A DNA stretch of 64,000 nt from a candidate division WOR-3 bacterium (GTDB taxonomy: Bacteria; Hydrothermota; Tepidihabitantia; Tepidihabitantales; JAOUPE01): the NCBI GenBank assembly GCA_039801565.1, contig JBDRUX010000001.1, forward strand, positions 1 through 64,000. The letters run 5' to 3'. Under the pieces are notes generated by a model that worked only from the letters and a program-made list of their open reading frames with translations, did no database searches and was not told where the DNA came from. The position numbers and the translations under genes are program-made. Shown here in pieces: positions 2,095-55,205 of this stretch (position 1 is the first letter of the stretch; each line of letters starts with the position of its first letter).

Positions 2095-2286
2095 ATCGAT
2101 TCTCTTAAATGATTTGAACTATTGAACTAACACCATGCGAAACGCATGCAGAATACTGCTCATTCTTCTCGGTACGCCTTGACCCGATATTTGAAGGGCT
2201 TAAGGTTTTCAAAAGATTAAAGTTGTTCAACCAGTTTTTCAGCAAGTTCATTAGCAATTTGAACCGTTTTGGCGCTATTTCTTCAT

Positions 2287-3985: not shown

Positions 3986-4086
3986 ACTATCTATTTTAAA
4001 CCGTAATTGCTAAAAGTCAATCAAAAACAGTTGGGAGTCAATATGAGAATTTCATAACCTAAGAAAAGTGTAATGTGAAAGCCTGC

Positions 4087-4114
4087 CTTTTTGAACTCTT
4101 GAACGATTTAAACC
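4087..4114 (+). repeat. Short TTGAAC-type repeat, copy 2
   Basis: ctttttgaactcttgaacgatttaaacc; one mismatch to the copy at 2552. Confidence 0.75.
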
Positions 4115-4261
4115 ATTAGCGCACCCTTTCTGGATCCATTTTGTCACTGAGGTCGCAGAATAAAGAATTTTTTTCGGTGTCTCCGCGCCGCTGTGGCAAA
4201 ATTTCTGGATGGAGACTTTAACCGAAAAATCACGGAATACTGCTAAGGTTGAGTTTTGAAA

Positions 4262-9015: not shown

Positions 9016-9098
9016 GCCGAGGTGGCGGAATTGGCAGACGCGCTAGGCTCAGGACTTAGTGGTTAACAGCCGTAGGGGTTCAACTCCCCTCCTCGGCA
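9016..9098 (+). tRNA. tRNA-Leu(CAG)
   Basis: GCCGAGG/CCTCGGC acceptor stem, GGAATTGGCAGAC D-arm, anticodon arm CTAGG-CT-CAG-GA-CTTAG, long variable arm, GTTCAACTC T-loop; CCA not encoded. Confidence 0.95.
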
Positions 9099-9170
9099 CT
9101 TCGTGCCTCGGAAAAAATCGGTCGTTGTATCCTTCGGATTTCAACTCCCCTCCTCGGCACTTCGTGCCTC
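9079..9170 (+). repeat. 31-bp direct repeat of the tRNA 3' end plus flank
   Basis: ttcaactcccctcctcggcacttcgtgcctc at 9079-9109 and 9140-9170. Confidence 0.9.
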
Positions 9171-17867: not shown

Positions 17868-17942
17868 TTGAAAGGAATCAAGCCAGGAATTTATTTCTTG
17901 CAATTTGGCACCGAGACCAAAAAGTTTCTGGTTATAAGATGA
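17868..17942 (+). pseudogene. Orphan 3' end of a sorting-domain gene
   Basis: Encodes LKGIKPGIYFLQFGTETKKFLVIR*; near-identical to 21082-21156. Confidence 0.8.
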
Positions 17943-18245
17943 AATGAACTCCAACTGCTGTCGGGGCAAAGACTGCTTAAGTTAAATTGGTGCTTGATAA
18001 AAATCAAAATGAATCTATAATATAATTGAGTAGTGATATGTCACTAATAAAAGCTCTCTCTCAAGGATAAATCTTTCCAATCTTTAACAAAATTTAGCCG
18101 GTTCCATAATTCAAAGCGGTTATTTATTGTTCACTCTGGAATCGGTTTTGTTTGGAAAAGGTTTTCGCGGCTGGTTAGAAACCTTTCCGAATTTTATTTT
18201 TACCAGCCCTTGACAAATGTCAAAAGATTCTTAAAGTAGAAGGAG

Positions 18246-18990: not shown

Positions 18991-21156
18991 ATGGTCAATT
19001 TGATAACTTTCTTCCTTTTTCTGTTTACGCCTGTTAAAGCAATGTCCAAAAGCGATTTTAAGCCGATTCATTACCAAAAGGTTTATCGAAGTAAAGATTG
19101 GGATTCACTCAATTCACGGTTTATTGGTAACTGGCCTTTTGGTGAAAGTTGGACATTAACTTTGGATACAGCAAGAAATATTGTTTTTCTTGGTTCTGGT
19201 GGGGGCGTTCTGGCAATAGATATTACAAATCCTTCCGACCTCCGTAAATTAGGAGAAATTAGAACTGGAGGAAGGGTTCGCGAGATGGTTTTAAAAGATA
19301 GTATTCTTTGCATCGCTTGCACAAATCAAGGGGTCGAAATCTGGAATGTGGCGAATGTTTCACAGCCGACTTTCTTAAGTTCTATTCTAGGTCCTTCGAA
19401 AGAAGTGGCTGTCAAAGATTCCTTTGCTTATATTGGAGGTAATAATTTAAGAATTTACAATATACGCAACCCTCAAAGACCGGTTGAAGTAAATTCTTAT
19501 GGAAATTGGTGGGAAATTGTTGATTTGACGGTTTCGGACTCTTTTGCCTATCTTACTGGGTACGGAATTGATTCGTCGGGTCTGTTAATCATCAGTATTC
19601 AAAACCCGACAAACCTCTATGTAGTAGGATTTTTAGATTTAGACAGCACCTTAGGAAGTATTGCAATATTAAATAATTATGCTTACATTACAGGTTATGG
19701 TTTACGCATCATTGATATTTCTAATCCAGCAAATCCTTATGAAGTTGGGTCGTGTATCACTCCGGTTTGCGGAACTGCTGCGGTTGCAATTTCCGATTCA
19801 TTTGCTTATGTTGCTAATGGCACACGGGGGCTGACCATAATTAATGTACAAAATCCAACAAATCCATTTGTGGTAGCAAATTGCACAACCACAACTTGGA
19901 GTGTTATGGTAGATATTGCAGTCTTAGATTCCTTCGCTTATTTGGCTGATGAGAAGAGTAAACGCGGGTTATGGGTTGTAAATGTCTCTAATCCTTTAAA
20001 CCCATTCGAAGCTGGTTTTTATACTGTGCCTGGTTGGTCATTTACTGTGGTGCTTGAAGAGAATTATGCCTATCTTGTTGGCTGGGAGGATGGTCTGCGA
20101 ATTCTCAATATCGAAAATCCTTCTTATCCTTATGAGGTTGGTTCATTTGCCACTGAACATGGCGCACAAGGTATAGCAATTAGAGATACTTTGGCTTATC
20201 TCTGCGATTTTGGCAAAGGATTAAGAATTCTTAATATAAGTGACCGCTCAAGACCTGCTGAATTGGGATTCTGTCCAACACCTGGTGCTGCCTGTGCGGT
20301 AGTAATAAAAGGTAATTATGCCTATATTGCGGATGGCACTTATGGCTTGCGAGTCATCAATATTGAAAATCCAACCAATCCTTATGAAGTTGGTTTTTGC
20401 GATACACCTGACTACGCATGGAGTATTGCGATTCAAGACTCTTTTGCCTATATAGCTGATGAAAGAGGTGGACTACGCATAATAAATATTCAAAACCCAG
20501 CCCATCCTTATGAGGTTGGTTCACTTTTGATACCCGATGGACCGGTAGTTGTAGCGGTAAAAGATTCTTATGCCTTTGTTGGTGGCTATGAAGGTGGAAA
20601 TATGAGAATTATCAATGTCGGAAATCCGGCTAATCCTTATGAAATTGGATTTTTTGAGACCTATGGTCCTTGTTTTGGGATTTCTCTTGAATATCCATAT
20701 GCCTATGTCTCGGATTGGTTTTGGGGTTTTTGGATTGCAGAGATAAGTGAACCTTCAAATCCGGTTCGGATGGGCTATTATAGGACACCTAACGCTGCCT
20801 ATGGGTCAGCATCGCGCCCACCTTATGTTTATGTTACAACTGGCTTATGCGGACTACAAATTTACGAAAATCTTCTGTTAGGAGTTGAAGAAAAGAAAAT
20901 CAGCCGTTTAGTGACAAAAGAGTTTGTAATTTATCCCAATCCGGCAAAGTCTGTTCTTGCTATCCGCTTACCGCTTTTGGCTAACCGCCAAAATATAAGA
21001 ATCTTTGATGTTTCAGGAAAGATGATAAAAGAGATTGCCGTTACCGAATCCAATCGCGATAACAATGAAATAAAAATATCGCTGAAAGGAATCAAGCCAG
21101 GAATTTACTTCTTGCAATTTGGCAACCAGACCAAAAAGTTTCTGGTCGTGAAATAA
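18991..21156 (+). CDS. LVIVD-repeat beta-propeller protein with T9SS-type C-terminal sorting domain
   Basis: More than 10 repeats of AYxAD..GLRIINIxNPxNPYEVG; C-terminal IYPNP...IFDVSGKMI...GIYFL...KKFLVVK. Confidence 0.9.
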   Translation: MVNLITFFLFLFTPVKAMSKSDFKPIHYQKVYRSKDWDSLNSRFIGNWPFGESWTLTLDTARNIVFLGSGGGVLAIDITNPSDLRKLGEIRTGGRVREMVLKDSILCIACTNQGVEIWNVANVSQPTFLSSILGPSKEVAVKDSFAYIGGNNLRIYNIRNPQRPVEVNSYGNWWEIVDLTVSDSFAYLTGYGIDSSGLLIISIQNPTNLYVVGFLDLDSTLGSIAILNNYAYITGYGLRIIDISNPANPYEVGSCITPVCGTAAVAISDSFAYVANGTRGLTIINVQNPTNPFVVANCTTTTWSVMVDIAVLDSFAYLADEKSKRGLWVVNVSNPLNPFEAGFYTVPGWSFTVVLEENYAYLVGWEDGLRILNIENPSYPYEVGSFATEHGAQGIAIRDTLAYLCDFGKGLRILNISDRSRPAELGFCPTPGAACAVVIKGNYAYIADGTYGLRVINIENPTNPYEVGFCDTPDYAWSIAIQDSFAYIADERGGLRIINIQNPAHPYEVGSLLIPDGPVVVAVKDSYAFVGGYEGGNMRIINVGNPANPYEIGFFETYGPCFGISLEYPYAYVSDWFWGFWIAEISEPSNPVRMGYYRTPNAAYGSASRPPYVYVTTGLCGLQIYENLLLGVEEKKISRLVTKEFVIYPNPAKSVLAIRLPLLANRQNIRIFDVSGKMIKEIAVTESNRDNNEIKISLKGIKPGIYFLQFGNQTKKFLVVK

Positions 21157-21272
21157 ATTGTAACGGTGCGGTAGCGAAGCGGTGCCGAAGGCACAATTAT
21201 CGCCTAAAGGACTTTTAGCTTGTTTTAAGGAGTCGGATAAATCCAATCGCTATTGTCTTCTACTCCACCTGT

Positions 21273-21485
21273 TTCTTTTCCTAACCTACCTTCGTCTAAG
21301 TCTAACAGCTCGCCTACTAACCAGATTACCAGACCTTTTACTAGCTAACTTACCAGCCGGCTCCCGAGTCAGCTCACCAACCAACTTCAAAGGCACGCTA
21401 CGGAACCAGTCCGTGCCTTACCCCCTACACTGCCCCTGATACTGTATAGGGGGTAGCCGGGGGCTAGCCCAACTCCTACCCTCCC
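21273..21485 (-). repeat. 12-bp-periodic degenerate array with G-rich head, copy 1
   Basis: Consecutive minus-strand 12-mers ctttgaagttgg, ttggtgagctga, ctcgggagccgg, ctggtaagttag, ctagtaaaaggt, ctggtaatctgg, ttagtaggcgag. Confidence 0.8.
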
Positions 21486-21595
21486 TTGGTTCTTTCTTTA
21501 GCAAAATCAAAGTCTTAACGAGTTAGAGCCTAACTTACTTAACACCATCATCAATTTGTAGGTTTTAACTTAAAAACAACAATAGACTGATTCGA

Positions 21596-21663: not shown

Positions 21664-22032
21664 ATGGTAAGAAATGCTTTACGCAGGATTCAGAAATGGG
21701 ATAAGAAACTATCGGGCGATGTCTTAAGCCAACGCGTTAGTGAGTTAAAGCCGATGATGTTTTCACAAGTCGAAGCCGAATTCCCAACGCTTGTGAAGGT
21801 CGAAGAAAAGGTTAAGACGGTACTCGGTGAGTTCGGCGTTCCGTCCTGGCAGAATCCGCCTTATCTCAATTATAGCCGAGCGCTTTATAAATTGAGCAAG
21901 CGGTTTTGCGGTAACCAATTGCGCAAGATGGCGAATGTGGCATTAGTGAAGTGGTTGGCACTCGATTTAGACCAGCGCATTCTTGAAGCGATTCGCGACA
22001 CGGTCTTTTCCCTAACCGCACCAACTTCGTAA
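21664..22032 (+). CDS. Putative SIRV2/Adnaviria-type major capsid protein homolog
   Basis: Strong RBS; 122 aa; RRIQKWDKK, P..VKVEEKVKTVLGEFGV, Y, G.QL..M, ILEAI pattern collinear with the rudivirus MCP as recalled from memory. Confidence 0.75.
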   Translation: MVRNALRRIQKWDKKLSGDVLSQRVSELKPMMFSQVEAEFPTLVKVEEKVKTVLGEFGVPSWQNPPYLNYSRALYKLSKRFCGNQLRKMANVALVKWLALDLDQRILEAIRDTVFSLTAPTS

Positions 22033-34457: not shown

Positions 34458-34632
34458 CTCCGTATTTTACCGAAAGAAACCTAATAGTCAAGAATGAAAA
34501 GCAAGAAGTATTAACTGAATCCAAAACGAGGCTAATTAAGAGAATACAAAGAAAGTAAAATTCGGGAACGAATTTTTGTGGTTCCAAAACATCGCTTTTA
34601 GGAGACGATTCGGATTTTCGAGAGTTCGATAG

Positions 34633-34776
34633 TTATTAGTTCAAATTGTTTAAGATGGTTTAAAACTTAAATATGAAAGAATAATGAGAAGAATTATTGT
34701 CACTTCTATCGTCCTGCTTGGTGTTTTTTTGTGCTTGCGATATTAGTGTTGTGTCACAAGTCGTTTCGGGTGTTGC
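34633..34776 (+). pseudogene. Diverged inverted copy of the upstream region and 5' end of the gene at 39506-40120
   Basis: Matches the reverse complement of about 40030-40171; MRRIIVTSIVLLGVF then frameshift. Confidence 0.85.
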
Positions 34777-39505: not shown

Positions 39506-40120
39506 CTATTTTGGCAATTCTTTAAGCGCTTCCTCACAAGTCTTTCTCAAACTATCCGCCAATATCAAGACTTTTTCCAATTGCACTTTTAACCTCGTGA
39601 TTTGTTTCTTTATCTCAGTTTGGTCTTTTTCCTTAAGTAGAGCCTTGACGTGATTAGAAAGCGACTCTTTCAGTGACCTAAGACTGTGTAGTTTGCTCGT
39701 GTCGTCATCACTAAATGCTTTCAACAAAATTTTCGCCTCTTCTAAAATGGCCGTAAGTTCTTTTGCCCGGTATTTTTCTTTAATCTCAATGGTCGCCTTT
39801 GCCGTAGAAGTCCGGATTGGACAAGTCCGACTCGCATCAATAAAACCTTGACCAGCGCGGTCAAGACGAACCGTTATCTTCTTTTCGAAAGTTGTGACAT
39901 TAACTGAATCCCAATCGCTCTCTTTTTGCAACGAGACTTTATCGAATTTGAATTGAGTGGCTTCGATAGCTAATAGACAAGGCAGGTGAATATTCTTAAC
40001 TATAACTTTAAATTCCAGCGAATCCCCGACAACACCCGAAGCGGTTTGTGGCACAACACTAATATTACAAGCATAAAAAATACCGAGCAGAGCGATAGAG
40101 GTGATAATAATTCTTCTCAT
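39506..40120 (-). CDS. Hypothetical lipoprotein
   Basis: MRR + hydrophobic stretch + FYAC lipobox. Confidence 0.7.
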   Translation of the reverse strand: MRRIIITSIALLGIFYACNISVVPQTASGVVGDSLEFKVIVKNIHLPCLLAIEATQFKFDKVSLQKESDWDSVNVTTFEKKITVRLDRAGQGFIDASRTCPIRTSTAKATIEIKEKYRAKELTAILEEAKILLKAFSDDDTSKLHSLRSLKESLSNHVKALLKEKDQTEIKKQITRLKVQLEKVLILADSLRKTCEEALKELPK

Positions 40121-40185
40121 TATCTTTTCGTATTTAAGTTTTTAACCATCTTGAACAATTTGAACTAATAAATAAATTAGGGATA

Positions 40186-42264
40186 TCACCCCTTTTCTTT
40201 TTCGCGTTTTGCCTCTTCGATTATTTTAGCCGCGATTTCGCGTGGCACTTCTTCGTAATGGGAAAACTTCATTGAAAAATAACCGCGGCCTTGAGTCATT
40301 GACCGCAGGGTCGTCGAGTATTTATACATCTCGGCCATCGGCACCTGAGCCTTAATTACCTGTAAAGAACCCTCCGACTCCATTCCTAAAATTCTTCCGC
40401 GTCGAGCATTCAAGTCACCAATCGCATCACCCATATACTGTTCAGGAACTGTGACTTCAACATCCATTATTGGTTCTAATAAGACGAGGCCGGCTTTTTC
40501 GGCTGCTGCCTTGAATGCTAACGAACCAGCAATCTTAAAAGCGATATCCGAAGAATCGACTTCGTGATAAGACCCGTCGTAAATCGTTACTTTTACGTCC
40601 ACGACCGGATAACCCGCCAGAACACCCTGTGCCATTGTCTCTAATACCCCCTTTTCTACCGAGGGCAAATATTTAGAAGGCACTGCTCCAGCATAGATTT
40701 CGTCAATAAACTCAAAACCGGTTCCGCGCTCTTTAGGTTCGAGCCGAAGCCAGACATCGCCATATTGGCCCCGACCACCGGATTGTTTCTTATATTTTCC
40801 TTGTGCTTCAGCTTTGCGTTGAATTGTCTCTCGATAAGGAATCTTCGGTTTCACTAAGTCCACCGCGACATCAAATTTTCTTTTCAAACGAGCAACAATT
40901 ACATCTAAATGCAACTCGCCTAATCCAGAGATAAGTTGCTGTTTCAATTCATGGTCATACTTATAAGAGAAGGTTGGGTCTTCTTCATGCAATCTTGCTA
41001 AACCGTTAGAAACCTTTTCCTCATCGCCCTTAGATTTGGGTACAATTGCTACCGAAATCGAAGGTTCGGGGAATTTTATCGGCTCGATTACAAATGGGTC
41101 TTGAGGGCTACATAAAGTATGGGAGGTGTGAGTCTGTTTTAACTTAACCAAGGCGCCAATCTCGCCGGTCCGAAGTTTATTAGTCTCAATCCGCTCTTTA
41201 CCCTTTACATAATAAATCTGGTTAATTTTTTCCTCGCGTTCAACATTCGAATTCAATAAAATCATCCCCGACTCAATACTCCCCGAAAGCACCTTCACAT
41301 AATTCAAATCCCCAATATGAGGTTCAGAAACAGTTTTAAAGACAAAAGCGATAGTCGGACCTTTGGGGTCTCTCTTTCGAATGATTATCTCTTCACTACG
41401 TGGTTTAGTACCTCGAATTTCGGTAATATCAATACTCGACGGCATTGATTCCACAATAAAATCCAACATCAGTTGAACTCCAATATTCTCATAACCATCG
41501 CCACAAAGCACCGGGAAAAGTTTATGCTCTTTAGCCCCCTGCTTAATTGCGGCAACAATTTCCGAAGGAGTAATCTCATTACCTTCAAGATACTTATTCA
41601 TCAACTCCTCGCTGGAATCGGCACAAGCCTCTAAAAGCTTATCTCGATACTGATTAATTCGATCGTCAAGCTCGGCTGGCACTGGAATCTCCTTAATAAC
41701 TCCATCCTTATCACTATACGCCTTATTATGGATTAAATTAACAATTCCCTCGAAACCGGCTTCTTTACCAATCGGTAAAAAGACCGGACAGATTTTGCTA
41801 CCGAAATTCTTAATCACCTCATCAATTACTTTATAGAAATCACTGTGTTCTTTCTTCAATTTATTAATAAAAATTAATCTTGGCAACTCTCTCTGATTAA
41901 TCAATTTCCAGACTATTTCGGTACCCACTTCGATACCGGATACTGCATCAATTACCACAATAGCGATATCTACTGCGGCAAGACCAGAATAAACCTCGCC
42001 GATAAAATCCGCATAGCCAGGAGTGTCAACAATGTTAATCAGATTATCTCGATATGCCCCATAACCTAAAGCCAGACTAATACTAATTTTTCGAGCGATT
42101 TCATCTTCATCATAATCTAAAAGGGCATTCCCTTCATCAACTCGACCCAGCCGATTATTTTGTTTTAAGTTATAAAGAATTGCTTCGCCAATGGTAGTTT
42201 TACCACAACCACCGTGACCGAAAAAACCAATATTTCTAATATTTTCTGCGTTATACTCTTTCAT
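40186..42264 (-). CDS. fusA: Elongation factor G (EF-G2-like paralog)
   Basis: GHGGCGKTT, DTPGYADF, GELHL, KQSGGRGQYG, DGSYHEVDSSD; stand-alone, outside the rpsL-rpsG-tuf operon. Confidence 0.9.
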   Translation of the reverse strand: MKEYNAENIRNIGFFGHGGCGKTTIGEAILYNLKQNNRLGRVDEGNALLDYDEDEIARKISISLALGYGAYRDNLINIVDTPGYADFIGEVYSGLAAVDIAIVVIDAVSGIEVGTEIVWKLINQRELPRLIFINKLKKEHSDFYKVIDEVIKNFGSKICPVFLPIGKEAGFEGIVNLIHNKAYSDKDGVIKEIPVPAELDDRINQYRDKLLEACADSSEELMNKYLEGNEITPSEIVAAIKQGAKEHKLFPVLCGDGYENIGVQLMLDFIVESMPSSIDITEIRGTKPRSEEIIIRKRDPKGPTIAFVFKTVSEPHIGDLNYVKVLSGSIESGMILLNSNVEREEKINQIYYVKGKERIETNKLRTGEIGALVKLKQTHTSHTLCSPQDPFVIEPIKFPEPSISVAIVPKSKGDEEKVSNGLARLHEEDPTFSYKYDHELKQQLISGLGELHLDVIVARLKRKFDVAVDLVKPKIPYRETIQRKAEAQGKYKKQSGGRGQYGDVWLRLEPKERGTGFEFIDEIYAGAVPSKYLPSVEKGVLETMAQGVLAGYPVVDVKVTIYDGSYHEVDSSDIAFKIAGSLAFKAAAEKAGLVLLEPIMDVEVTVPEQYMGDAIGDLNARRGRILGMESEGSLQVIKAQVPMAEMYKYSTTLRSMTQGRGYFSMKFSHYEEVPREIAAKIIEEAKREKEKG

Positions 42265-42637
42265 GCTTGCCTCCTAAAAATTATACTCGACAAAGTCGAA
42301 TTCTCTTTTCTTTAACAATTCTTAAGAGAAAAATCCGATTCGGATCCATTATAAGAAGGATATTAAATTTTAAGCCGAAGTCAAGCCTCACTAATAACCG
42401 ATTCAACTGCACTACTCCTTTTTGTAATTTTTAGGGAAGATTTTAGCATTTATGGTATGGAATCCTTTTGGAGTAATGATGGTAATTAGTTGTCCTAGAA
42501 TATTTTTGGGTGCATAGTGGAATGGATAACCATCGTCAAATTCAATTGGGTACAAACTCCCATTAGCTAATGGCTACAACAGAGAAAAGTCTCTTTATAA
42601 TTGACTTTTTGCCATCTTCGATTAAAATTATTATGGA

Positions 42638-44983
42638 ATGGAGGATCATCAAATGAAAAGTAGAAAGCATAATTTGGCTTTTAAACCTTTTTGGCTTTGT
42701 TTAGGTATTGCGACTTTATTGTCAATTTCGAACACTTTCGGCAAAGAGATGGTTGTACGCATCTATGCTAAAAATTATCAGGAACTGAAAGACCGAATTC
42801 AATTCAAAGGCACAAATATTGAGATTGCGGGCGCCCGACCAAACGAATGGTACGATTTAATCGTCACTTCCGAAGATTATCCTTTAGTTCAAAATTGCGG
42901 TCTAAAATCGGAAATTATCCTCGAAGATTTAGCACAAGCCAAAGAACAAGCTCTGGCTGAAGGACAATACCACAGTTATGACGAGATTAATCAGATTCTA
43001 AGGAATATGGCAACCCAATATCCGAATATCTGTAAACTTGAGAGTTTAGGACTGACCTATGAGGGTCGGCAGATTTATGGCGTCAAAATTTCTGACTCAC
43101 CAGAGATTGATGACCCAACTGAGCCGGATGTCCTTTTTATTGGTTGTCATCACGCCCGCGAATGGGCATCGGTCGAAGTACCCAGGCATATTGCTGATAG
43201 TCTTACCCGCGCTTATAGTTCAAGCCCGGCAATACAGGATTTAGTGAACAATCACGAGATTTGGATTTTCCCGATAATCAATGTTGATGGTTATGTTTAC
43301 GACTATCCAGCCCAGCGCAGTTGGCGGAAGAATCGTCAGCCATTCGGCACCGCGGTGGGCACTGACCCGAATCGTAATTATAATGGTGCTTGTAATGGCG
43401 ATGCGATGGGCGATTGGGGCGCACTAACCGAAGGTTCCCAATCCACCCATTATCCATCTTCTGCTACCTTTATGGGTCCTTATGGTTTTTCGGCTTATGA
43501 GATTAAAAATTTAACCGACTTCTTTAAAACCCATGAATTCAATGCGGTGCTTTCTTTCCATTCTTATTCGGAACTGGTGCTTTGGCCCTGGGGGTATACC
43601 AATGCAACAACACCGGACAATACAATTTTAGTTCGAGTTGGTCAACGGATGGCGGGTTTGATGGAACGGTTAGGTGGTGGCTACTATACTCCTCAGCAAT
43701 CAATTGAACTCTATCCAACCGCCGGTGGTTCAGATGACTGGATGTATGGCTATAGCCATTGGGTTTCAGGCAATCCTTGTATCTCTTATACGATTGAACT
43801 TGGCACACAATTCTATCAATCCGCATCGCAACTCGACCATATCCAACTTCAAGCCTTTAAGGCTGCCGTTTGTATTACTAACTTCTCGGATAGTGTTCGA
43901 TTACTAATGAAAAGTATTGTGCCGCCGCCAATCCTTGCTCCATTGGACTCCAGTGTTACGGGCGATTTTACACTCCATTGGTCCCCAATCCGTCCTTATG
44001 CAAACCAACCCGAACAATGGGAAATTGAAGAATTGACAAGCTATTCTCTTATCGAAGACAATCTTGAAGGCACTACCGAACGATGGACTTTGGGTGGTTT
44101 TACTTTAAGCACTACCCAGTCCCATTCTGCCAGCCATAGTTTTTTCTCTGGCTCAGCCCATAATATTTCTAACTATGTCCGTACTACCTACCCTTATATC
44201 GTTCAGCCGAATGACTCTTTAACCTTCTGGTGTTGGTACGATTTGGAAAATAATTATGATGTGGCGGTAGTAGAAATATCGCCCAACTTAAAAGAATGGA
44301 CTCAACTTGACAATCGCTACACTGGCAATTCTGGTGGCTGGGTGAGGAAGGCTTACTCCTTAGAAAATTGGGTTGGTAAATCCATCTACATCCGTTTTCG
44401 GTGTATGACCGACGATGGCGTCTTACGCAATGGATTCTATGTGGATGACATATACCCGGTCCCTTATTTCAATCAAGCCCGGGTGGTTGCTTCAAATATA
44501 GCTGACACTTTTTATAATATAACCGGTCAACCAGTTGGCCAATATTGGTATCGGGTTCGAGGTTATAATACTGCTTGGGGTTGGGGTGATTACAGCACCT
44601 TAGAAGATATCGCTGTTATCGGAACCGGAACCCAGAAGGCGGAAAGCAAAATACGGAACGGGGAATGCGAAATGTGGCTTCGCTTCCAACCAAACCCCTG
44701 CAGAGATCAAGTTCGCATTACTTACTCAGTGCCAAAAGGAGAGAAACCGCTTTTGCAGATTTACGATGCATTGGGTAGACCGGTAAAATCATTTAACATC
44801 ACACCCTCGGAATTTAACTCTGGAGAAATCGTTTGGGCTAAGGATGATGATTTGGGCAGACCGCTAAGTTCAGGCATTTACTTCATAGCCTTATCTTATG
44901 CTACCTCAAAAGAATCGCACGTTAAATCGAAATGTTTGCACCAGATAAACGGCAGGCTAATTAAAAAAATAATTGTTCAATAA
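42638..44983 (+). CDS. M14 zinc carboxypeptidase with beta-sandwich domain and FlgD/T9SS-like C-terminus
   Basis: HHAREW, NVDG, WRKNR, DPNRNY, FHSYS, GGSDDW, IEL; PNP...IYDALGR...SGIYF. Confidence 0.9.
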   Translation: MEDHQMKSRKHNLAFKPFWLCLGIATLLSISNTFGKEMVVRIYAKNYQELKDRIQFKGTNIEIAGARPNEWYDLIVTSEDYPLVQNCGLKSEIILEDLAQAKEQALAEGQYHSYDEINQILRNMATQYPNICKLESLGLTYEGRQIYGVKISDSPEIDDPTEPDVLFIGCHHAREWASVEVPRHIADSLTRAYSSSPAIQDLVNNHEIWIFPIINVDGYVYDYPAQRSWRKNRQPFGTAVGTDPNRNYNGACNGDAMGDWGALTEGSQSTHYPSSATFMGPYGFSAYEIKNLTDFFKTHEFNAVLSFHSYSELVLWPWGYTNATTPDNTILVRVGQRMAGLMERLGGGYYTPQQSIELYPTAGGSDDWMYGYSHWVSGNPCISYTIELGTQFYQSASQLDHIQLQAFKAAVCITNFSDSVRLLMKSIVPPPILAPLDSSVTGDFTLHWSPIRPYANQPEQWEIEELTSYSLIEDNLEGTTERWTLGGFTLSTTQSHSASHSFFSGSAHNISNYVRTTYPYIVQPNDSLTFWCWYDLENNYDVAVVEISPNLKEWTQLDNRYTGNSGGWVRKAYSLENWVGKSIYIRFRCMTDDGVLRNGFYVDDIYPVPYFNQARVVASNIADTFYNITGQPVGQYWYRVRGYNTAWGWGDYSTLEDIAVIGTGTQKAESKIRNGECEMWLRFQPNPCRDQVRITYSVPKGEKPLLQIYDALGRPVKSFNITPSEFNSGEIVWAKDDDLGRPLSSGIYFIALSYATSKESHVKSKCLHQINGRLIKKIIVQ

Positions 44984-45188
44984 TTGTTATGCGTTAAACT
45001 TTTATCTCAACTCAGACCGTAGCGTTAGGACTTGCTCCAACAATACACTGCTTCATTTTTGGGGAAGTGTTTGAATTATCTCCGGGTAAATTTAGGAAAA
45101 ACTACTTAACTTGCGATTCTAAATGAGCGCTCTAACTAAATCGTCCCCTAATTAAATTAAAACCTATCTTCGAACCAATCTTGTCGAA

Positions 45189-45569
45189 TTAACCCGTCTC
45201 CGAATCGGATTTGGGCGGTGTTGACAGTTGTCCCATCATCTTTTCATACTTTTGTTTAAAATCAATCGCAGTCGGTTCTTTAAAAAATTCGACTAAGAAG
45301 TACCACCGACTCGAAGCAAATCAAGAATTGTTCGCAAAACGAGATTTTGGATAAATCCATTTTATAGGCGGGCAATAAAACTCCGTCCATGCTTTGATTT
45401 TAATCCTAACCAAGCAGCAACTTCCAGTTGGGTCAAATCAATCTTTTTTTCGTAATGCTTTAAGCTATCCGAATCAGATTTTGAAAGAAAAGAGAAACCC
45501 GGAACTTGTTTCAGGGTCGCCTGCGTCGAACTTTTCTGCCATTTCTTGAGAAAAAACCGGTATCGGCAA
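45189..45569 (-). pseudogene. XRE-family HTH regulator pseudogene
   Basis: Reconstructs to MPIPVFSQEMAEK[insert]LKALRK/KIDLTQLEVAAWLGLKSKHGRSFIARL*NGFIQNLVLRTILDLLRVGGTS/VEFFKEPTAIDFKQKYEKMMGQL; one stop, two frameshifts, one insertion. Confidence 0.75.
45497..45530 (+). repeat. REP-like palindrome
   Basis: acccggaa-cttgt-ttcagggt then cgcctgcgtcgaa; sister copy near 60069. Confidence 0.6.
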
Positions 45570-45654
45570 AACGTTAGCTAAAACTAACACAAAAATCAAG
45601 CCAAAATTTCTTTTAAGTATATGATATTTAAGATGTTATATATAATTTGTCTTT

Positions 45655-45885
45655 GGGTGGGGGTATGGTATAGGGGGTAGCCCCGTAGGCTGCCTCCTGA
45701 GCTAACCCGCAGGTTGCCCGGAAAGTTGCTTCGGAAGTTACTTTTGGAGCTGGTTGGCAGGTAGGCTCAGGAGTGACTTCGTAGGCGACCTCGGAAGCAA
45801 CCCAGTAGGCAACTTGGAAAGCAACCTGGAAGGCAACCTGGTCGTTAGCTCCGCAGGCTACCTGAGAAACGACCCTCTATACTGC
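45655..45885 (+). repeat. 12-bp-periodic degenerate array with G-rich head, copy 2
   Basis: 16 in-phase 12-mers at 45682-45873, e.g. ttcgtaggcgac ctcggaagcaac ccagtaggcaac ttggaaagcaac ctggaaggcaac. Confidence 0.9.
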
Positions 45886-46042
45886 CTCGCTGTTTCACCA
45901 ATCTTAATTCCTGTGTCTTGATCACCGATTTTAAGGATATAAAAATAGTTCAAAATGTTCAAATAGTTTAACTGAGCGAGCAGTAAATCTTGAAATGTTT
46001 CCCAGAAAGTGAAAAACATTGACAACGCTTTAAGTAGGGTTA

Positions 46043-46145
46043 TTGCTCATTAGAAAGAAAGGAAAGAAAATAACATTAGACAAACCTTGGAGTGCAAAAG
46101 CAAAATTAGAAATTGTCCTGGAAGGGTATCGCTCAGGGCAACATT
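46043..46145 (+). pseudogene. Possible IS3-family transposase OrfA N-terminal fragment
   Basis: KPWSAKAKLEIVLEGYRSGQ resembles HTH_Tnp_1 starts; no remainder or terminal repeats seen. Confidence 0.35.
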
Positions 46146-46281
46146 GCTGCGATATGCCAACACCGAGGTATTCCCAAAAATTTTCATTTCTGAGAAACGG
46201 TACACTTTGCAATGACACTCATTTTAAGCTTGACATATTCATTAGATAATATTATAATGATGAAAATGATAAGGAGGAAAA

Positions 46282-46875
46282 ATGCATAAAAGCACAAGAC
46301 TCCTTGTTTTGGGGTTCTGCGTATTAGGTATTATGGTATGGAGTTGTCACCGGACCACACCGAAAGCTTTACGAATTGTTGAGATAAACAACGGACAAAT
46401 ACTTACTGCTGATACACAAGATGAATGGACAACCGGTTCGGGCGAAGAGTTAGAAGAACATTCGGAAACACCAAGTTATAGTGTTGAAGTTGAAGTATCT
46501 TACACCGAAAGAGGAACTGGTTTGCCCACCTACCCTACTGCTTACACTGCAGAGATTACTGATTATACAGTTACCTTTAAAGATATAACTCCTGGTGCTA
46601 CTCCTGGGGAATTCGCACCCGCTCCAGTCAAAGGGGTGTGTTATTTCGTTGTTCCCTCTGACCCTGCAGGCAAAAAGACAGTTAAACAATCAATTCTTGT
46701 TCTTCCAGCAGCTTGGATTGATCAATACCCAGAATTGGAGGATGGGAAAGTATTAAATGCGAAAATTACGCTACGGGGTAAAGATATAATTTCCAATTTG
46801 GATGTTACGGGTGAGGGTATTCTGACAATTAATATTGCTAACTTCGAAGACGACCCCAACAAACGAGGCGAATAG
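46282..46875 (+). CDS. Hypothetical lipoprotein
   Basis: AAGGAGG RBS; signal peptide ending VWSC; TTGACA/TATAAT upstream. Confidence 0.75.
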   Translation: MHKSTRLLVLGFCVLGIMVWSCHRTTPKALRIVEINNGQILTADTQDEWTTGSGEELEEHSETPSYSVEVEVSYTERGTGLPTYPTAYTAEITDYTVTFKDITPGATPGEFAPAPVKGVCYFVVPSDPAGKKTVKQSILVLPAAWIDQYPELEDGKVLNAKITLRGKDIISNLDVTGEGILTINIANFEDDPNKRGE

Positions 46876-47077
46876 GGTTAAATAACTTGCTCAATTACAA
46901 CCAAACTTGATTTGAGTAAAGAGCAATTTGCAATGCTAGCCAGGATTTAACCTCTTTAATCTTGTAGCTACTAAGGACAAAATAATAAAACCAAAAAGAA
47001 AGGAGGGAAGCGATTAAAAACCATAACTTACAATACACAAAAGCGATGCATTATCAAGAAAGCAAAAGGAGGCTTTT

Positions 47078-49021
47078 ATGAAGCGACCGAAGTTCTTGGT
47101 TTTAGCCCTTACAGTTTGGGCAATACCTTCGATAATATTTGGGCTACCATCATTAGCCGGAAATCGAGGTTTATTCCGAGTTAACGATGCTCGGGTCGAA
47201 GGCGCTGGACTACTTACTTTTTCGGTTCATGGAATCGCAAGCTGGGAAGGCAGCCTTTCGGATAATCTCTATGGTGACTTAGTCGCCTCACTTGGCTATG
47301 CTCCGGTTAACTTTTTAGAATTCTATGTTTGGTCGGGTGGAATTATGCAGATTGTGAAAGATGTTACAACTGGTGAACCTAAAGCCGATTTCGGATTTAA
47401 CGATAAGGTCTTTGGTGGTAAGTTATCAATCCCTTGGATTCCGGTTTTGAAATTGGGTGCAACTGGTTATTACACAGTTGAAAGCGATATGGGCTTTGTC
47501 CACCCACTTTATCCAATAGCCGAAGAATTCGGCTGGAAAGGATTGGCTACTCTTCAATTGAACGAATTCTTACCATCGGCCCCAAACTTTTACTTCAATT
47601 ATGGGGAAACTAAATACCAAGATATTGCGATTAAATCAATGGGAATGGGATTAGAACTCGAGGCAAAAAATATAAGTTTTATCCTCGAAGCGACCTCTAA
47701 TAATGACTATTTTTATTATCCCGAGTCATCACTATTAAGCAAAGGTGCTTATATTAGACTCACGCCGGGATTACGTTTTAAGGTTGGTGGCTTTGGGGTT
47801 GATTTGGGCTTGAGCCTTGGTTTAACTCCACCGGCACCGGATTACGAGGTATTATTTGGTTTTAACCTGGCGACTCCTTTCTTACAACCACCAAAAGCCG
47901 CGGTCGGTACAATTGCTGGCAAGGTTATTGATTCCCGCACCGGTGAACCACTCGAAGCAACAATCAATTTCCCCGACCTGCCAAAATTAACACCACTCAC
48001 ATCTAATCCTAATACTGGTGTCTTTACTGCTGAGAAGATACCAGCCGGAGTGGTAGTAGTAGAAGTAACTAAAGAAGGTTACCTTAAAGAAGTAGTTCCC
48101 CTTACGGTAAAAGCAGATGGTATAACGAGTTACGAATTTAAATTAAAACCACTCATCACCTACGGTGTTATCGCCGGTAGGGTTTATGATGTAACCAATA
48201 ATCGTCCACTCCAAGCACTCATTTCTTTCCCCGGCACCAACATCCCGTCAGCAAGTTCCGATTCAGCCACTGGTTCGTTCCGTGTTGACAATATTCCGGT
48301 GGGGATTATTACCATTCAAGCGGAAAAAGATGGTTATTTTAAAAACGCCCAAACGATTCAAATCGAAGAAGGTAAAGTTACTTCGGTCGATTTAGCAATG
48401 GCACCGTCAGCATTTATGGCAACCTTAACTGGTAAAGTAGCTGATAAAAAGACTGCAAAGCCCCTTCAAGCAATAATCTCATTCCCGGGCACTGGAATTG
48501 CTGATATAACCACCGATAGTCTAACTGGAATTTATCAAGTCCAATTGCCAGTTGGTTCGCATCCCGTTGAAGTTAAAGCTGAAGGTTATATAACGCAGAC
48601 TGCCGTTGTAATTTTAGAAAAGGATAAGATTACTGAAAAGAATTTTGACTTAGTGCAAAAGGGGATGGTAATTACCCTTAAAGGTATCTATTTTGACTTT
48701 AACAAAGCGACGATTCGGCCAGAATCTTATCCAGTTCTTGATGATGCTGCCAAGATTCTTACTGACAATCCCAAGATTACGGTTGAAATCCAAGGTCACA
48801 CCGATTCCGAAGGTTCTGACTCTTATAATCAGAAGCTCTCCGAGCAGCGGGCTTATGCGGTAGTTGATTACCTTGTAAAGGTGAAAGGGATTGATATCAA
48901 TCGGCTAAAAGCGGTTGGTTTTGGTGAAAGCAAACCAATTGCTTCTAATGCTACAAAAGAAGGGCGTGCTTTAAATCGAAGAGTCGAGTTCGTAATCTTA
49001 GGCGAAATCGAACAGAAATAA
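47078..49021 (+). CDS. OmpA-family protein with N-terminal barrel-like region and three carboxypeptidase-regulatory-like domains
   Basis: Three GxIxGKVxD...PLxAxIxFP repeats; IYFDFNKA, IQGHTD, NQKLSEQRA, NRRVEF. Confidence 0.9.
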   Translation: MKRPKFLVLALTVWAIPSIIFGLPSLAGNRGLFRVNDARVEGAGLLTFSVHGIASWEGSLSDNLYGDLVASLGYAPVNFLEFYVWSGGIMQIVKDVTTGEPKADFGFNDKVFGGKLSIPWIPVLKLGATGYYTVESDMGFVHPLYPIAEEFGWKGLATLQLNEFLPSAPNFYFNYGETKYQDIAIKSMGMGLELEAKNISFILEATSNNDYFYYPESSLLSKGAYIRLTPGLRFKVGGFGVDLGLSLGLTPPAPDYEVLFGFNLATPFLQPPKAAVGTIAGKVIDSRTGEPLEATINFPDLPKLTPLTSNPNTGVFTAEKIPAGVVVVEVTKEGYLKEVVPLTVKADGITSYEFKLKPLITYGVIAGRVYDVTNNRPLQALISFPGTNIPSASSDSATGSFRVDNIPVGIITIQAEKDGYFKNAQTIQIEEGKVTSVDLAMAPSAFMATLTGKVADKKTAKPLQAIISFPGTGIADITTDSLTGIYQVQLPVGSHPVEVKAEGYITQTAVVILEKDKITEKNFDLVQKGMVITLKGIYFDFNKATIRPESYPVLDDAAKILTDNPKITVEIQGHTDSEGSDSYNQKLSEQRAYAVVDYLVKVKGIDINRLKAVGFGESKPIASNATKEGRALNRRVEFVILGEIEQK

Positions 49022-49040
49022 GTTCAACTAAATTGAATGT

Positions 49041-49075
49041 ATGGGGGCGAAACTTTGCCCCCATTTTTATTTTTG
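49041..49075 (+). terminator. Rho-independent terminator
   Basis: atgggggc/gcccccat stem plus T tract. Confidence 0.8.
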
Positions 49076-49190
49076 AAGATTGGTTAATGAGTGTCTTTGG
49101 AGAATGCGGATTGGCTCGAATTGCTTAAAGAATTCAAGTGGCGACCCAGAAGGTTGACATTTTTTGCTGAATATAATATAATTCATTCGG

Positions 49191-50141
49191 ATGGACCAGG
49201 ATTTTGCTAATCGTTGGGAGAAATCAAATATCCAGACCCTTGGTTTAGCTGTCAAAAAGCGAATTGGCATCCCAAGGGCTTTATTGTATTTTCGGTATGG
49301 TAATTTCTGGCGACGATTTTTCCAAGAACTTGGTTTTGAGGTTGTCTTATCACCCAAAACTGATAAGACAATTCTAAAAAAAGGTTTGGATAAGGTCTCA
49401 AGCGAAGTCTGCTTACCAATCAAAGTGATTTGCGGTCATATCGAGGAGTTAATTGATAAAGTCGACTACATTTTTCTACCCCGCTTGGTAACACTTAAAG
49501 ACAATCTCTATGCCTGTCCGAAGATGATTGGAGTTGTGGACGTTGCGCTTCTGAAGTTCTCTAATTCTTGCTCAATCCTGACACCGAAGATAAAAAATGA
49601 TTTTTTCTTACCTCATTTTTTAACCGGACTTAAGCTGACCGCAAACCCGATAAAATCATTGCGGGCGTTAAAACGAGCTAAGTCAGTTTTCTCAAAAGTG
49701 AAAGCTGTTCCTGAATTTCCAACCGACAAGCCTAAGATTGCGTTAATTAGCCATTTTTATAATCTCCAAGACGATTTTATTGCCAAAGATATTATTGAGA
49801 CCTTTAAAAAGAATGGGTTTCTAATCTATACCAAAGAAGATTTGCCTGAGACAATTTTAGCTTCGGCACAAGGTTTTGCCCAAAATATTCGATGGGTTTA
49901 TGAGCGGGAACTTTATAATGCCTTTAACTATTATTTAGATAAGGTCTCGGGCATTGTGACGATTATTTCCTTTGGCTGTGGGCCGGATTCCTTAATTGCT
50001 GAACTGATGGCAGAAAAAGCGAAAGCCAGCAACAAACCATTTTTATCGTTAATCATTGATGAGCATACCGGCCGGGCTGGTTTAATTACTCGTCTGGAAG
50101 CCTTTATTGAATTAATAAAAAGACAGATTAGTTTAAATTGA
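49191..50141 (+). CDS. Acyl-CoA dehydratase activase-related protein (DUF2229-like)
   Basis: IGIPRAL, EVCLPIK, ACPK, SFGCGPD, IDEHTGRAGLITRLEAF. Confidence 0.85.
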   Translation: MDQDFANRWEKSNIQTLGLAVKKRIGIPRALLYFRYGNFWRRFFQELGFEVVLSPKTDKTILKKGLDKVSSEVCLPIKVICGHIEELIDKVDYIFLPRLVTLKDNLYACPKMIGVVDVALLKFSNSCSILTPKIKNDFFLPHFLTGLKLTANPIKSLRALKRAKSVFSKVKAVPEFPTDKPKIALISHFYNLQDDFIAKDIIETFKKNGFLIYTKEDLPETILASAQGFAQNIRWVYERELYNAFNYYLDKVSGIVTIISFGCGPDSLIAELMAEKAKASNKPFLSLIIDEHTGRAGLITRLEAFIELIKRQISLN

Positions 50142-53375: not shown

Positions 53376-55205
53376 TCATTTACTCTGATGACCGGTCAAA
53401 CGGATTGATTTTATTTGACTTTTCCAATCCTTGCCACCTTGCTCTTTGGACAGTGTAAAGAGTACAATATTGGCATTGTTCACAGTCTGGCCAGGTTGAA
53501 ATGTTAGCATATCGTCCCATTGACCGTTGCCATTAGCGTCCCAATAACCGAGGCCTTCGCCCGGGTCACTATAACCATTATTGTTCACATCATCAAATGC
53601 CTCAACATATGCCTCAAGCGGTGCCGAAAGTGAATAGATAATTGTGTAGGCTCCGGTGGCGGGATTGACGCTAACTATACCGACGGGAATAATAGTATTT
53701 GTGTGTGAAGTATCAAGGAAGGCAATACAGTAGTTAGATAGAGAATGCCCAGGCCAAGTAACCACTCCGGAAACAGTAAGATTTTGTCCACCACCTTGCT
53801 GTTGTAATGTTGCATTTATTGTAGTTGTCTGACCAGCGTTGACTGTGACCGTATCAATCCAATCATAATATCCGCTCAAAGTCAGTTTTACTTCATAATT
53901 ACCTGGATTGATGGTAAATGTCACATTGGTGGTGTGACCGGTATTTGTGCCGTTAATCCAGACCGTAGCACCGGTTGGGGTTGAATTAACCACTAATGTT
54001 CCGGTATTTCCACCACCTCCGCCGCCACCAGTTGAACTTATGAACTTGGATAAAAATGCATGCCAGTTAGTGGAACGAAATTGACATTGGACATATTTGG
54101 TAGATTCAAATAACTCGGCTCGATACGGAAAGTGAATATTTAATCCGCCCCGCGTCAATCCGGTAACATTAGTCATCGTCATTGGTACTGCATCATTTAT
54201 TCCATCAATAACCTCTTGTGCCGCATTTTTAATAAGGTTGATATTCTGAAGATTCGGTTCCTGTAACACCTTTTTGCAGAACTCACGCAAATCACAAAAT
54301 GCTGGGTCATCCCATTGCGTGTAGTGAGTTGAGTTGAAGGCATCTAAAACTTCATTCCAATTATTGCCGGTCTCAGTTACTAACATATTACCAAGATTGG
54401 AAATCCGAGAGGCGAGCGCAGTCATTTTGCTTAAATCAGTTACTGCCATATGCGCCTGTTTCTGCTTATTATTTGCCGTCGCATATACCGCCTCAACAAT
54501 CTTCTTAGAAATCTCAAGCGGAGTTGTGTTTGGGTTAGCGGAAAGGTGCCCCAGCCATTGTTCTGAACCAAGAATACTCTGCATCGGCATCGTGAATTGA
54601 CAGGCAACCATATAGTCAGCATTGTCTTTTAGTTCATAAGCGACCTCAACCATTGACATCAAGCAAGCGTGAAAGACAATAACATCAAAATGAAAGGTGT
54701 CTAGTGCCTGTTTCATATCCGGCATTGACATTAAATCACCAGCGCCATTCTGCTCATCCGAACACGCACCACGCCAGCCACCACCATGGTCATCAATTAT
54801 CAACATATAATGCTCAGCTGGATATTTCTCTTTACCGGCTTTGATGAAATTATGCAAGGTCGTTTTATCTGACATATCTTTAGTTCCCAAGTTCTCAATC
54901 ACAGTTGAACTGAGCGAATCTGGCATTTCGTTTTCAAACTTCTCAATATGGTAATACTTACAGTTGCCGCCGGTCTTTAAAGAACCAAGCATAACCATAA
55001 TTTGAACCTTATCGGTTGAGCCAATCTTCTCCATCTCTTGGGCATCGGCTATGCAATAGGAATTTCCGTTCAATGAGACATCAAGGTTATTATTCCCGTC
55101 CATATAGGCAAGTATTGTCCAAGTGGCTTTTTTCGTCTTATGGCAGGTGAGGGATAAAAAGCCCATAACCATTACAATTAGGAGAAGGAACTTCGATAGT
55201 TTCAT
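53376..55205 (-). CDS. Clostripain-family (C11) cysteine peptidase lipoprotein with PEGA domain
   Basis: LTC lipobox, WTILAYMDGNNNL, DDHGGGW, FHACLMSMVEVAYE; VNSTPTGATVWING PEGA. Confidence 0.88.
   Translation of the reverse strand: MKLSKFLLLIVMVMGFLSLTCHKTKKATWTILAYMDGNNNLDVSLNGNSYCIADAQEMEKIGSTDKVQIMVMLGSLKTGGNCKYYHIEKFENEMPDSLSSTVIENLGTKDMSDKTTLHNFIKAGKEKYPAEHYMLIIDDHGGGWRGACSDEQNGAGDLMSMPDMKQALDTFHFDVIVFHACLMSMVEVAYELKDNADYMVACQFTMPMQSILGSEQWLGHLSANPNTTPLEISKKIVEAVYATANNKQKQAHMAVTDLSKMTALASRISNLGNMLVTETGNNWNEVLDAFNSTHYTQWDDPAFCDLREFCKKVLQEPNLQNINLIKNAAQEVIDGINDAVPMTMTNVTGLTRGGLNIHFPYRAELFESTKYVQCQFRSTNWHAFLSKFISSTGGGGGGGNTGTLVVNSTPTGATVWINGTNTGHTTNVTFTINPGNYEVKLTLSGYYDWIDTVTVNAGQTTTINATLQQQGGGQNLTVSGVVTWPGHSLSNYCIAFLDTSHTNTIIPVGIVSVNPATGAYTIIYSLSAPLEAYVEAFDDVNNNGYSDPGEGLGYWDANGNGQWDDMLTFQPGQTVNNANIVLFTLSKEQGGKDWKSQIKSIRLTGHQSK

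Follow-up and report, generated by a model that had tools for sequence, protein, structure and literature searches.

The 12-bp-periodic array described here, together with the remnant of a regulator gene beside it, lies in the first 64,000 nucleotides (forward strand) of contig JBDRUX010000001.1 of GenBank assembly GCA_039801565.1, from a candidate division WOR-3 bacterium (GTDB lineage Bacteria; Hydrothermota; Tepidihabitantia; Tepidihabitantales; JAOUPE01); this whole stretch is referred to as the window. On the minus strand at 45192..45436, three-frame translation and tblastn reveal the remnant of an XRE-type helix–turn–helix (HTH) gene, of which about the first 100 codons are kept and the capsid-like C-terminal part is missing. 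Upstream of the remnant, a degenerate promoter of this dead gene can be read directly on the minus strand at 45571..45599 (TTGATT, a 17-nt spacer with a near-palindrome, and TAACGT), which the consensus promoter scan did not list. A head motif follows at 45655..45681. It is made of G-runs on the plus strand (a C-run motif when read along the regulator gene's strand) and forms the gene-proximal end of the array. The array itself (45682..45873) consists of 16 phased 12-bp units of the GYNRCYYSGKRR class on the plus strand, as found by direct reading and by lag-12 identity, and a tail of the CCTCTATACTGCCTC type at 45874..45897, conserved among the copies in the genome, closes the element at its gene-distal end.

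According to blastn coverage, the repeated DNA extends from about 45180 to 45980, with a remnant-side flank common to about 20 other copies and a distal flank (45898..45975) common to about 30 other copies, in this genome only, which closes with GTTCAAA repeats. Tandem GTTCAAA/TTGAAC motifs stand at several intergenic spots of the window (2114-2129, 2220-2248, 2546-2582 and 4081-4117), besides the set at 45942-45968 that ends this flank. In contigs from four DNA runs, the element occupies the same site in three other samples of one study, and no empty site (element-free allele) was seen in those contigs; read depth climbs over the repeat. A search for RNA runs containing positions 41000-50000 of the window returned none.

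Periodicity of the array and decay of the neighbouring gene

An earlier reading of this DNA from its letters (the sequence-only reading) had described 16 units of 12 nt starting at 45682, free of indels and all different from one another, behind a G-run head (45655-45681), and the sequence indeed reads so. It had labelled this array copy 2, which is apt, as the window has a second, diverged and oppositely oriented array at 21289-21480 (copy 1), and had called it the best-preserved one. Over 45682-45873, the lag identities of copy 2 are 0.517 (lag 12), 0.548 (lag 24) and 0.519 (lag 36), whereas 2000 dinucleotide-preserving shuffles gave a mean lag-12 identity of 0.252 (standard deviation 0.032, maximum 0.372), which places copy 2 at z = 8.3. 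No other lag-12 signal in the window is as strong; the next one is at 21298-21489, in the opposite orientation. The contrast in base composition that had been noted is also borne out, with a GC content of 0.576 in the array vs. 0.26 and 0.325 in its AT-rich flanks. Tandem Repeats Finder picks up only the best-kept stretch, 45781-45841. The periodic array is thereby confirmed as an observation.

The gene remnant beside the array keeps the HTH region in a broken form, damaged by an in-frame TAA at 45362-45364 plus a frameshift. Longer versions of the gene stand beside other copies of the array, and the intact one encodes a 324-residue protein (P0001, on contig C63), residues 62-94 of which match 45195-45293 of the window at 67% identity in tblastn. 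Copy 2 is a decayed instance of a gene-plus-array module, its gene being a truncated pseudogene. Because this gene is dead, any regulator bound to copy 2 would have to come in trans from one of the few intact paralogues; otherwise, copy 2 is a relic.

A dispersed family of arrays upstream of XRE genes

In the host genome (2.31 Mb in 135 contigs), a blastn search with the element as query returned 76 loci, many of them within a few hundred bases of contig ends. The family fragments the assemblies of these genomes. A scan that is blind to sequence found 101 regions with a lag-12 identity of at least 0.45, a few of which are coding repeats (e.g., 53503-53661). Fifty-one full-length copies align in register, with a pairwise identity over the 16 units of 0.72 (median) and 0.90 (maximum), and unit k in one copy is orthologous to unit k in the others. 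The unit consensus over these copies, GYNRCYYSGKRR, is the previously given consensus in another phase. The pooled unit can be written as G1 Y2 N3 R4 C5 Y6 Y7 S8 G9 K10 R11 R12, i.e., purine/pyrimidine classes are conserved rather than bases. When the length was counted between the conserved head and tail motifs as anchors, 17 of the 24 copies with both anchors measured 206 nt, two 194 nt and one 242 nt (these three deviating by multiples of 12), and four were one base off. Within the family, conservation peaks in the head motif (90-99% column identity). The orthology of unit k, the largely constant length and a period that is kept despite differing unit sequences uphold the earlier suggestion of selection on spacing rather than recent slippage.

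The arrays are linked to XRE genes. Among the 26 matches to the N-terminal HTH region in the genome, 15 have an array at most 400 nt upstream, eight lie at contig edges and three fall below the lag threshold, two of these three having truncated arrays by blastn. Where an array is near a gene, it is on the 5′ side in 14 of 14 cases, at 34-196 nt from the HTH match.

A second dispersed repeat often adjoins arrays and terminates contigs. It comprises a TATAAT-type promoter, a ribosome site and a short open reading frame (ORF) beginning with MTRKQKRPRGG or MAREQKRPRGG, was found on contigs C4, C23, C27, C28, C30, C34, C43, C48, C74, C109, C112, C114 and C122, and might mark one boundary of an insertion sequence that either targets the arrays or occurs alongside them. 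Arrays also lie frequently just 3′ of genes with a type IX secretion system (T9SS) sorting tail, both in the window (42638-44983 and 17869-17946 / 21083-21160) and at loci L017, L019, L029, L031, L045, L093, L105, L114 and L119. A link between the arrays and T9SS cargo genes was considered and rejected as too weak, given that 14 of the 76 arrays have the end of such a gene within 700 nt vs. roughly 8% expected (about twofold, naively), with T9SS-tailed ORFs (155 of 1919) defined by our own iterated profile, unchecked against Pfam.

A conserved module in relatives

A blastn search with the array in 40 relatives returned almost nothing, because the unit sequences diverge, and a search based on the protein succeeded instead. 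Full-length relatives of the regulator (E of 1e-15 or better) were found in four families of the same order, under the source name 'candidate division WOR-3', and in 0 of 206 genomes of the phylum's other orders. A locus-level search for relatives among the genome contigs returned none, and 79 loci were collected from metagenomes (identity 36-77%). All 48 of these loci with at least 400 nt of upstream sequence, some of which are duplicate co-assemblies of one region, have their best lag, among lags 2-30, at 12 (14 loci) or 24 (34 loci), positioned at about -400 to -110 and with a lag-12 identity of 0.5 or more throughout. The GYNRCYYSGKRR class lies on the strand antisense to the gene in 38 of the 40 loci listed as distinct, in 8-23 units with a mode of 19. 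In other genomes, 12 of 22 loci of the full-length family have their best lag at 12 or 24.

The unit sequences themselves vary among lineages. The sister genus uses SAGTCTGCTCCC and TACCAGCCNRCY, another family uses AATAGSANNNNN, and a third family has a 24-nt AT-rich unit, so the period of 12 or 24 is kept though the units differ. XRE genes of family f2 have arrays as well, of the AAGCTCNNNNNN and of a GC-rich type.

Alignment of 30 metagenomic loci gives a common order from array to gene, namely a head motif of the GGGGTCACCCCCTAGGTGATACCCCCTCCC type, about 55 AT-rich bases, TTGAYT, and a palindrome over the -10 region. This palindrome is 15-22 bp long and different in each paralogue, as expected for an autoregulated XRE gene. 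The distal side of the array is not conserved in the metagenomic relatives, and the downstream ORFs in 31 loci are mutually unrelated (duplicate contigs aside) and housekeeping-like, with no conserved neighbour and no partner nucleoside triphosphatase (NTPase) among them; the module thus stands alone. It consists of the array (about 19 phased 12-bp units), the C-run motif, the AT-rich spacer, a sigma-70-type promoter and the XRE-HTH gene (encoding a protein of about 320 residues), the array being its cis half. Within the range searched, it is seen in one order of WOR-3 (hot-spring) bacteria, each genome having from tens to about 100 copies. On several long contigs, two or three modules are intact (metagenomic loci L058-L136), e.g., three on one 85-kb contig, showing that the paralogues are mostly intact in relatives, unlike in the genome studied here.

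The state of the family in this genome could also be that of a selfish dispersed repeat, comparable to miniature inverted-repeat transposable elements (MITEs) or repetitive extragenic palindromic (REP) elements and with no present function here, so that the arrays would be relics of a burst of genes plus arrays whose genes have since decayed. The 76-101 copies, many at contig ends, their median identity of 0.72 (maximum 0.90), the two near-full-length genes that are left and the dead gene of the window copy would all fit such a history. However, phase and unit order survive about 28% divergence, the head motif is 90-99% conserved, and the relatives keep an intact gene and module at 48 of 48 loci. 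We therefore regard a purely selfish repeat as improbable; it concerns the fate of copy 2 and is compatible with the family-level mechanism proposed below.

The array is non-coding, and a selected hairpin is unsupported

In most copies, one frame per strand is free of stop codons. This open frame on each strand is what would favour a protein-coding tetrapeptide repeat (N/D/S-L/P-G/V-S/G in the plus frame, or its counterpart in the antisense frame), which the sequence-only reading had named as one of two counter-cases, the other (a lag-12 signal no higher than in shuffles) being contradicted by the values above. The frames are open only because the unit's pattern of purines and pyrimidines leaves no room for a stop codon. 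In the window, no ORF with a start codon spans the array, and copy 2 has an in-frame TAA in the frame of the stop-free type; in copy 1, the frame is lost. At the would-be four-fold sites of the sense stop-free frame, GGN ends in A (0.35), G (0.64), C (0.01) and T (0.01), and GTN ends in A (0.98), whereas GGN in the genes used for comparison (556 long ORFs of the genome) ends in T (0.44), C (0.26), A (0.19) and G (0.11). NAY/NGY codons of the array frame are C-ending in 92-98% for four of the six pairs tested (AGY 78%, GGY 7 of 14), in contrast to a preference of 64-76% for T in genes, and conservation by phase over the 51 copies showed no codon-type pattern. Base use that is so unlike that of genes speaks against translation, and we give a coding array practically no weight.

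Taken singly, copies fold into one long hairpin, with predicted energies of -109 and -100 kcal/mol for the two strands. However, shuffling the order of the 16 units in the 51 copies yields sequences that fold equally well (mean z of -0.27 for the plus strand and +0.27 for the minus strand), and all in-phase fold-back registers pair alike, with Watson–Crick fractions of 0.40-0.53. G-U pairs (0.159) are about as frequent as A-C pairs (0.139), suggesting that neither strand is favoured, and the left arm pairs as well with the right arm of other copies as with its own (differences of at most 0.012). RNAalifold found no common long helix, with energies of only -19.7 and -7.2. In Rfam, the array has no match at the gathering score and its surroundings have chance-level matches at E up to 10, tRNA-Leu being the only family to reach the gathering score in the whole window. 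The foldability arises because the unit is palindromic at the class level, and its reverse-complement symmetry is significant for the type of this genome (p of about 0.01-0.03). A long hairpin of RNA or single-stranded DNA was thus rejected as an explanation, since the unit-order shuffles, the register scan and the comparison of pairing within and between copies give it no support.

The array might still act at the RNA level, as a non-coding leader, sponge or small RNA partnering the XRE gene 3′ of it, in the manner of the Brt RNAs. It is a multi-copy family in tandem 5′ of an XRE gene, as is described for Brt/Trp in the accessible text of PMC5387305, and it is GC-rich and folds to -109 kcal/mol. 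The results just given stand against an RNA, as shuffled units fold equally, no strand is favoured, pairing between copies equals that within a copy, RNAalifold shows no shared long hairpin and no Rfam family matches. Moreover, the gene's own promoter sits 3′ of the array. An RNA role accordingly appears quite unlikely to us. The consensus promoter scan listed no plus-strand promoter driving the array in the window. The array is non-coding. The earlier interpretation stands insofar as it proposed selection on spacing in a GC-rich non-coding element; it offered no mechanism and missed both the gene-plus-array module and the dead neighbouring gene.

A capsid-like domain in the regulator

In Pfam, P0001 matches HTH_3 (PF01381) alone, over residues 5-64 (E 5.4e-11, 42.8 bits vs. 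a cut-off of 23). The rest of the protein was examined by structure prediction. An AlphaFold2 model of the full-length protein has a predicted local distance difference test score (pLDDT) of 86, and residues 186-324 modelled alone reach 91. In a comparison of the full-length model with 48,161 PDB representatives that did not use Foldseek, residues 217-316 best match the capsid proteins of AFV1, SIRV and SSRV1. For residues 186-324 modelled alone, VIA-align ranked seven major capsid proteins of Adnaviria above every other one of the 48,161 chains (Z 13.9-8.9), the best unrelated chain having a Z of 8.8. These seven are 3fbz (Z 13.9), 6wq0 (Z 13.2, 123 of 131 residues aligned), 3fbl (Z 12.5, root-mean-square deviation 1.4 Å over 79 of 82 residues), 3f2e (Z 12.1), 5w7g_B (Z 11.0), 6d5f (Z 9.3) and 6wq2 (Z 8.9). 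The model of these residues has the long N-terminal helix and the four-helix bundle of this fold, with 119-123 of 123-131 residues covered in two entries. For the same residues, Foldseek independently places this capsid family at ranks 1-6, with probabilities of 0.97-1.0 and E values of 0.065-0.57.

The XRE-fused domain has no direct Pfam match, and its tie to the capsid family was made via profile alignment. Compared with the profile of the stand-alone family described in the next section, it gives an hhalign probability of 99.1% and an E value of 1.1e-18. The C-terminal 139 residues of the regulator are homologous to the major capsid protein of Adnaviria.

An assignment of the regulator to the RRNPP receptors was also considered and rejected, as the Foldseek result for the full-length model is dominated by the HTH and its RRNPP-type rows are weak, with a template modelling score (TM) of about 0.2.

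Stand-alone capsid homologues and copy 1

The second array of the window, copy 1 (21289..21480), is a diverged array of TTACCAGCYNRC-type units with a head motif, in the opposite orientation to copy 2. Its lag-12 identity is 0.45-0.48, and its best lag is 24 (0.54). Directly 3′ of it, on the plus strand at 21664..22032, lies an ORF of 122 residues that encodes a stand-alone homologue of the Adnaviria capsid protein. Along almost its entire length it matches PF12193 (Sulf_coat_C, 'Sulfolobus virus coat protein C terminal') with an E value of 6.4e-4, below the curated cut-off, and an hhalign comparison with the XRE-fused domain gives a probability of 91.3%.

A search of 1.84 billion proteins with a profile of the C-terminal domain returned 119 matches, many of which are stand-alone proteins of about 123 residues. 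Fifty such sequences, including the window ORF (21664-22029), were combined into a stand-alone profile. At E 0.1 or better, PF12193 is matched by 29 of the 50 members (best 1.3e-7), PF21660 (MCP_C) by six and PF25647 by two. Compared with PDB sequences, the profile matches, over nearly the full length, the capsid proteins of SSRV1 (6wq0, E 5e-9), SIRV2 (3j9x, E 2.3e-8), SFV1 (E 4.4e-4) and AFV1 (ORF140, E 7e-4), and the top seven rows are all Adnaviria capsid proteins.

Of the 66 genomes of the order, 65 carry the stand-alone family, generally with several to many copies each, whereas all 206 genomes of the other orders are without it. Viral contigs scanned once with the window ORF gave a single 10-residue chance match. 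Since the genes occur singly among housekeeping genes, are order-wide and had only this chance match in the viral contigs scanned, they are considered family homologues rather than the capsid genes of a known virus.

A proposed phased track for the capsid-like domain

In the virions of SIRV2, AFV1 and SFV1, one capsid-protein dimer holds 12 bp of A-form DNA, as stated in the accessible text of PMC5517147 and PMC6105669. The fold search, which was unbiased toward the number 12, returned a family with a 12-bp spacing, leading us to read the array as non-coding double-stranded DNA that serves as a phased track for the capsid-like domain, with a probability of about 0.5. The periodicity, the family, the linkage of gene and array and the capsid homology are observed; we infer the binding of the regulator to the array, its stoichiometry and its role.

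In the proposed mechanism, the HTH domain would bind the palindrome at its own promoter, and the capsid-like domains would then line up on the adjoining array, one dimer per 12 bp as in virions. Over about 230 bp, they would build up a short nucleoprotein sheath, which would serve to control the promoter or to mark the site. As for the unit, its purine/pyrimidine pattern may act as a positioning signal that is read via DNA shape and not base by base. The array would then work like centromere arrays such as tubC/TubR.

An alternative is that the array is an ordinary iteron or operator array, whose units bind the HTH or another host protein as plasmid centromeres do, and that the match to 12 bp is a coincidence. 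The array is found 5′ of a gene that encodes a DNA-binding protein, just as tubC precedes tubR in the accessible text of PMC6009700, and its unit sequences are lineage-specific, as co-evolving sites would show. Stand-alone capsid-like genes are mostly without arrays, suggesting that the HTH part tracks the arrays better than the capsid-like part does. However, paralogues whose palindromes differ, and whose HTH specificity presumably differs too, have one array class and one head motif in common, the conservation is at the purine/pyrimidine level and not base-specific, no partner NTPase or conserved neighbour occurs in the 31 loci, and the unbiased fold search gave a 12-bp-spaced family. On these grounds, an ordinary operator array is considered unlikely, though the likeliest of the alternatives weighed here.

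Several observations weigh against the array as a track for the capsid-like domain. Regarding the homology, Z values near 13 are not rare for helical bundles, and the PF12193 score of the window ORF (20.3 bits) is below the curated cut-off of 25.2, so that the claim of homology is carried by the family profiles. For the XRE genes of family f2, homology of the C-terminal part to the capsid-like domain is not established, as only the N-terminal 95 residues can be aligned with confidence. Regarding the linkage, about 100 arrays face only two near-full-length genes in this genome, and 10 of the 22 genome loci of the full-length family outside it are without a clear array. As a control, 28 regions upstream of stand-alone genes from other genomes were analysed, of which one has a best lag of 12 or 24, and three of the five stand-alone genes in this genome are without an array (two are with one). 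A two-fold dimer would be well matched by a symmetrical unit, but the reverse-complement symmetry is not significant in 12 arrays of other loci, nor in copy 1. Finally, virion capsid proteins are without sequence preference, and a sequence-defined track would thus be a new property of the fold.

Other features of the window

Three further features of the window were noted. The tRNA-Leu(CAG) gene at 9016-9099 has its 3′ end (9070-9109) repeated 61 nt downstream at 9131-9170, with 90% identity over 40 nt, which could be the scar of an attachment site. An inverted repeat of about 150 nt (34630-34775 / 40030-40174, 86-88% complementary) has its arms 5.3 kb apart, the left arm covering an apparent gene start with a signal peptide. 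A long ORF with a T9SS tail at its end contains, at 19583-20660, a unit of about 126 nt in seven diverged copies, which look like LVIVD-type beta-propeller repeats.

Significance

The capsid protein of Adnaviria is called unique to these archaeal viruses, without a link to bacteria, in the accessible text of PMC10848233 and PMC12282232, the former describing the realm as unconnected to bacterial viruses. In the literature outside the subscription-only part, no report of bacterial homologues of this capsid protein or of the present arrays was found. One possibility, which we consider less likely than not, is that one WOR-3 order holds the first cellular relatives of the Adnaviria capsid and uses them as chromosomal DNA-wrapping proteins, with the XRE-fused forms nucleating at their own promoters and polymerising over the 12-bp tracks, perhaps forcing the A-form locally. 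If so, these genes would represent either the long-sought cellular source of the Adnaviria capsid or its domesticated descendant, and in the arrays we would have the first positioning sequences of natural origin for a sheath of this kind.

Across an entire bacterial order, the chromosomes hold many copies of a capsid homologue, in one architecture of which the period of an array equals the footprint of the dimer. The module also explains a repeat family at which assemblies of these genomes break. If the binding is real, the arrays would provide a defined short DNA substrate for studying the wrapping of A-form DNA by a capsid fold, a testable route to the origin of the capsid of a virus realm, and a new kind of bacterial chromatin or regulatory element.

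Comparison with known systems

Among the known systems, REP elements, bacterial interspersed mosaic elements (BIMEs) and MITEs resemble the WOR-3 element in having many dispersed intergenic copies that break assemblies. In contrast to them, no conserved palindrome or hairpin was found in the WOR-3 element, which is 12-bp periodic and is tied to a regulator-type gene rather than to a transposase.

Another parallel, limited to the multi-copy layout, is found in the Brt/Trp (XRE) system of Bartonella, where, according to the accessible text of PMC5387305, a genus-specific multi-copy family of about 200 nt lies directly 5′ of XRE genes, as the order-specific family does here. However, Brt are highly expressed RNAs with stable predicted structures, whereas the WOR-3 array is strictly 12-nt periodic and is without a covariation-supported structure.

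Nearest in working principle are the centromere arrays of plasmids and prophages. The tubC centromere of pBtoxis is said to have 12-bp iterons, and parC of R1 reportedly has 11-bp repeats. Like the WOR-3 arrays, tubC consists of direct repeats 5′ of a gene; the protein encoded by the gene next to tubC binds these repeats, spreads and represses its own promoter, as described in the accessible text of PMC6009700. Unlike tubC/TubR and parC/ParR, the WOR-3 module has no adjoining motor NTPase in the 31 loci, is chromosomal and occurs in many copies; its protein has a different fold, and its units are conserved at the purine/pyrimidine level, with no defined iteron.

The Adnaviria capsids (SIRV2, SSRV1, AFV1, SFV1 and SIFV) differ from the WOR-3 proteins in setting, as the latter are encoded by bacterial chromosomal genes amid housekeeping genes, with the domain fused to an XRE HTH. 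Adnaviria virions coat a whole genome without sequence preference, whereas the WOR-3 array is about 230 bp long and sequence-patterned, with dimer binding and A-form DNA being putative here. The likeness lies in the protein partner of the array, which carries a homologous domain as judged from both fold and profiles, and in the spacing, since the 12 bp held by each virion dimer in the accessible text of PMC5517147 and PMC6105669 equal the period of the array.

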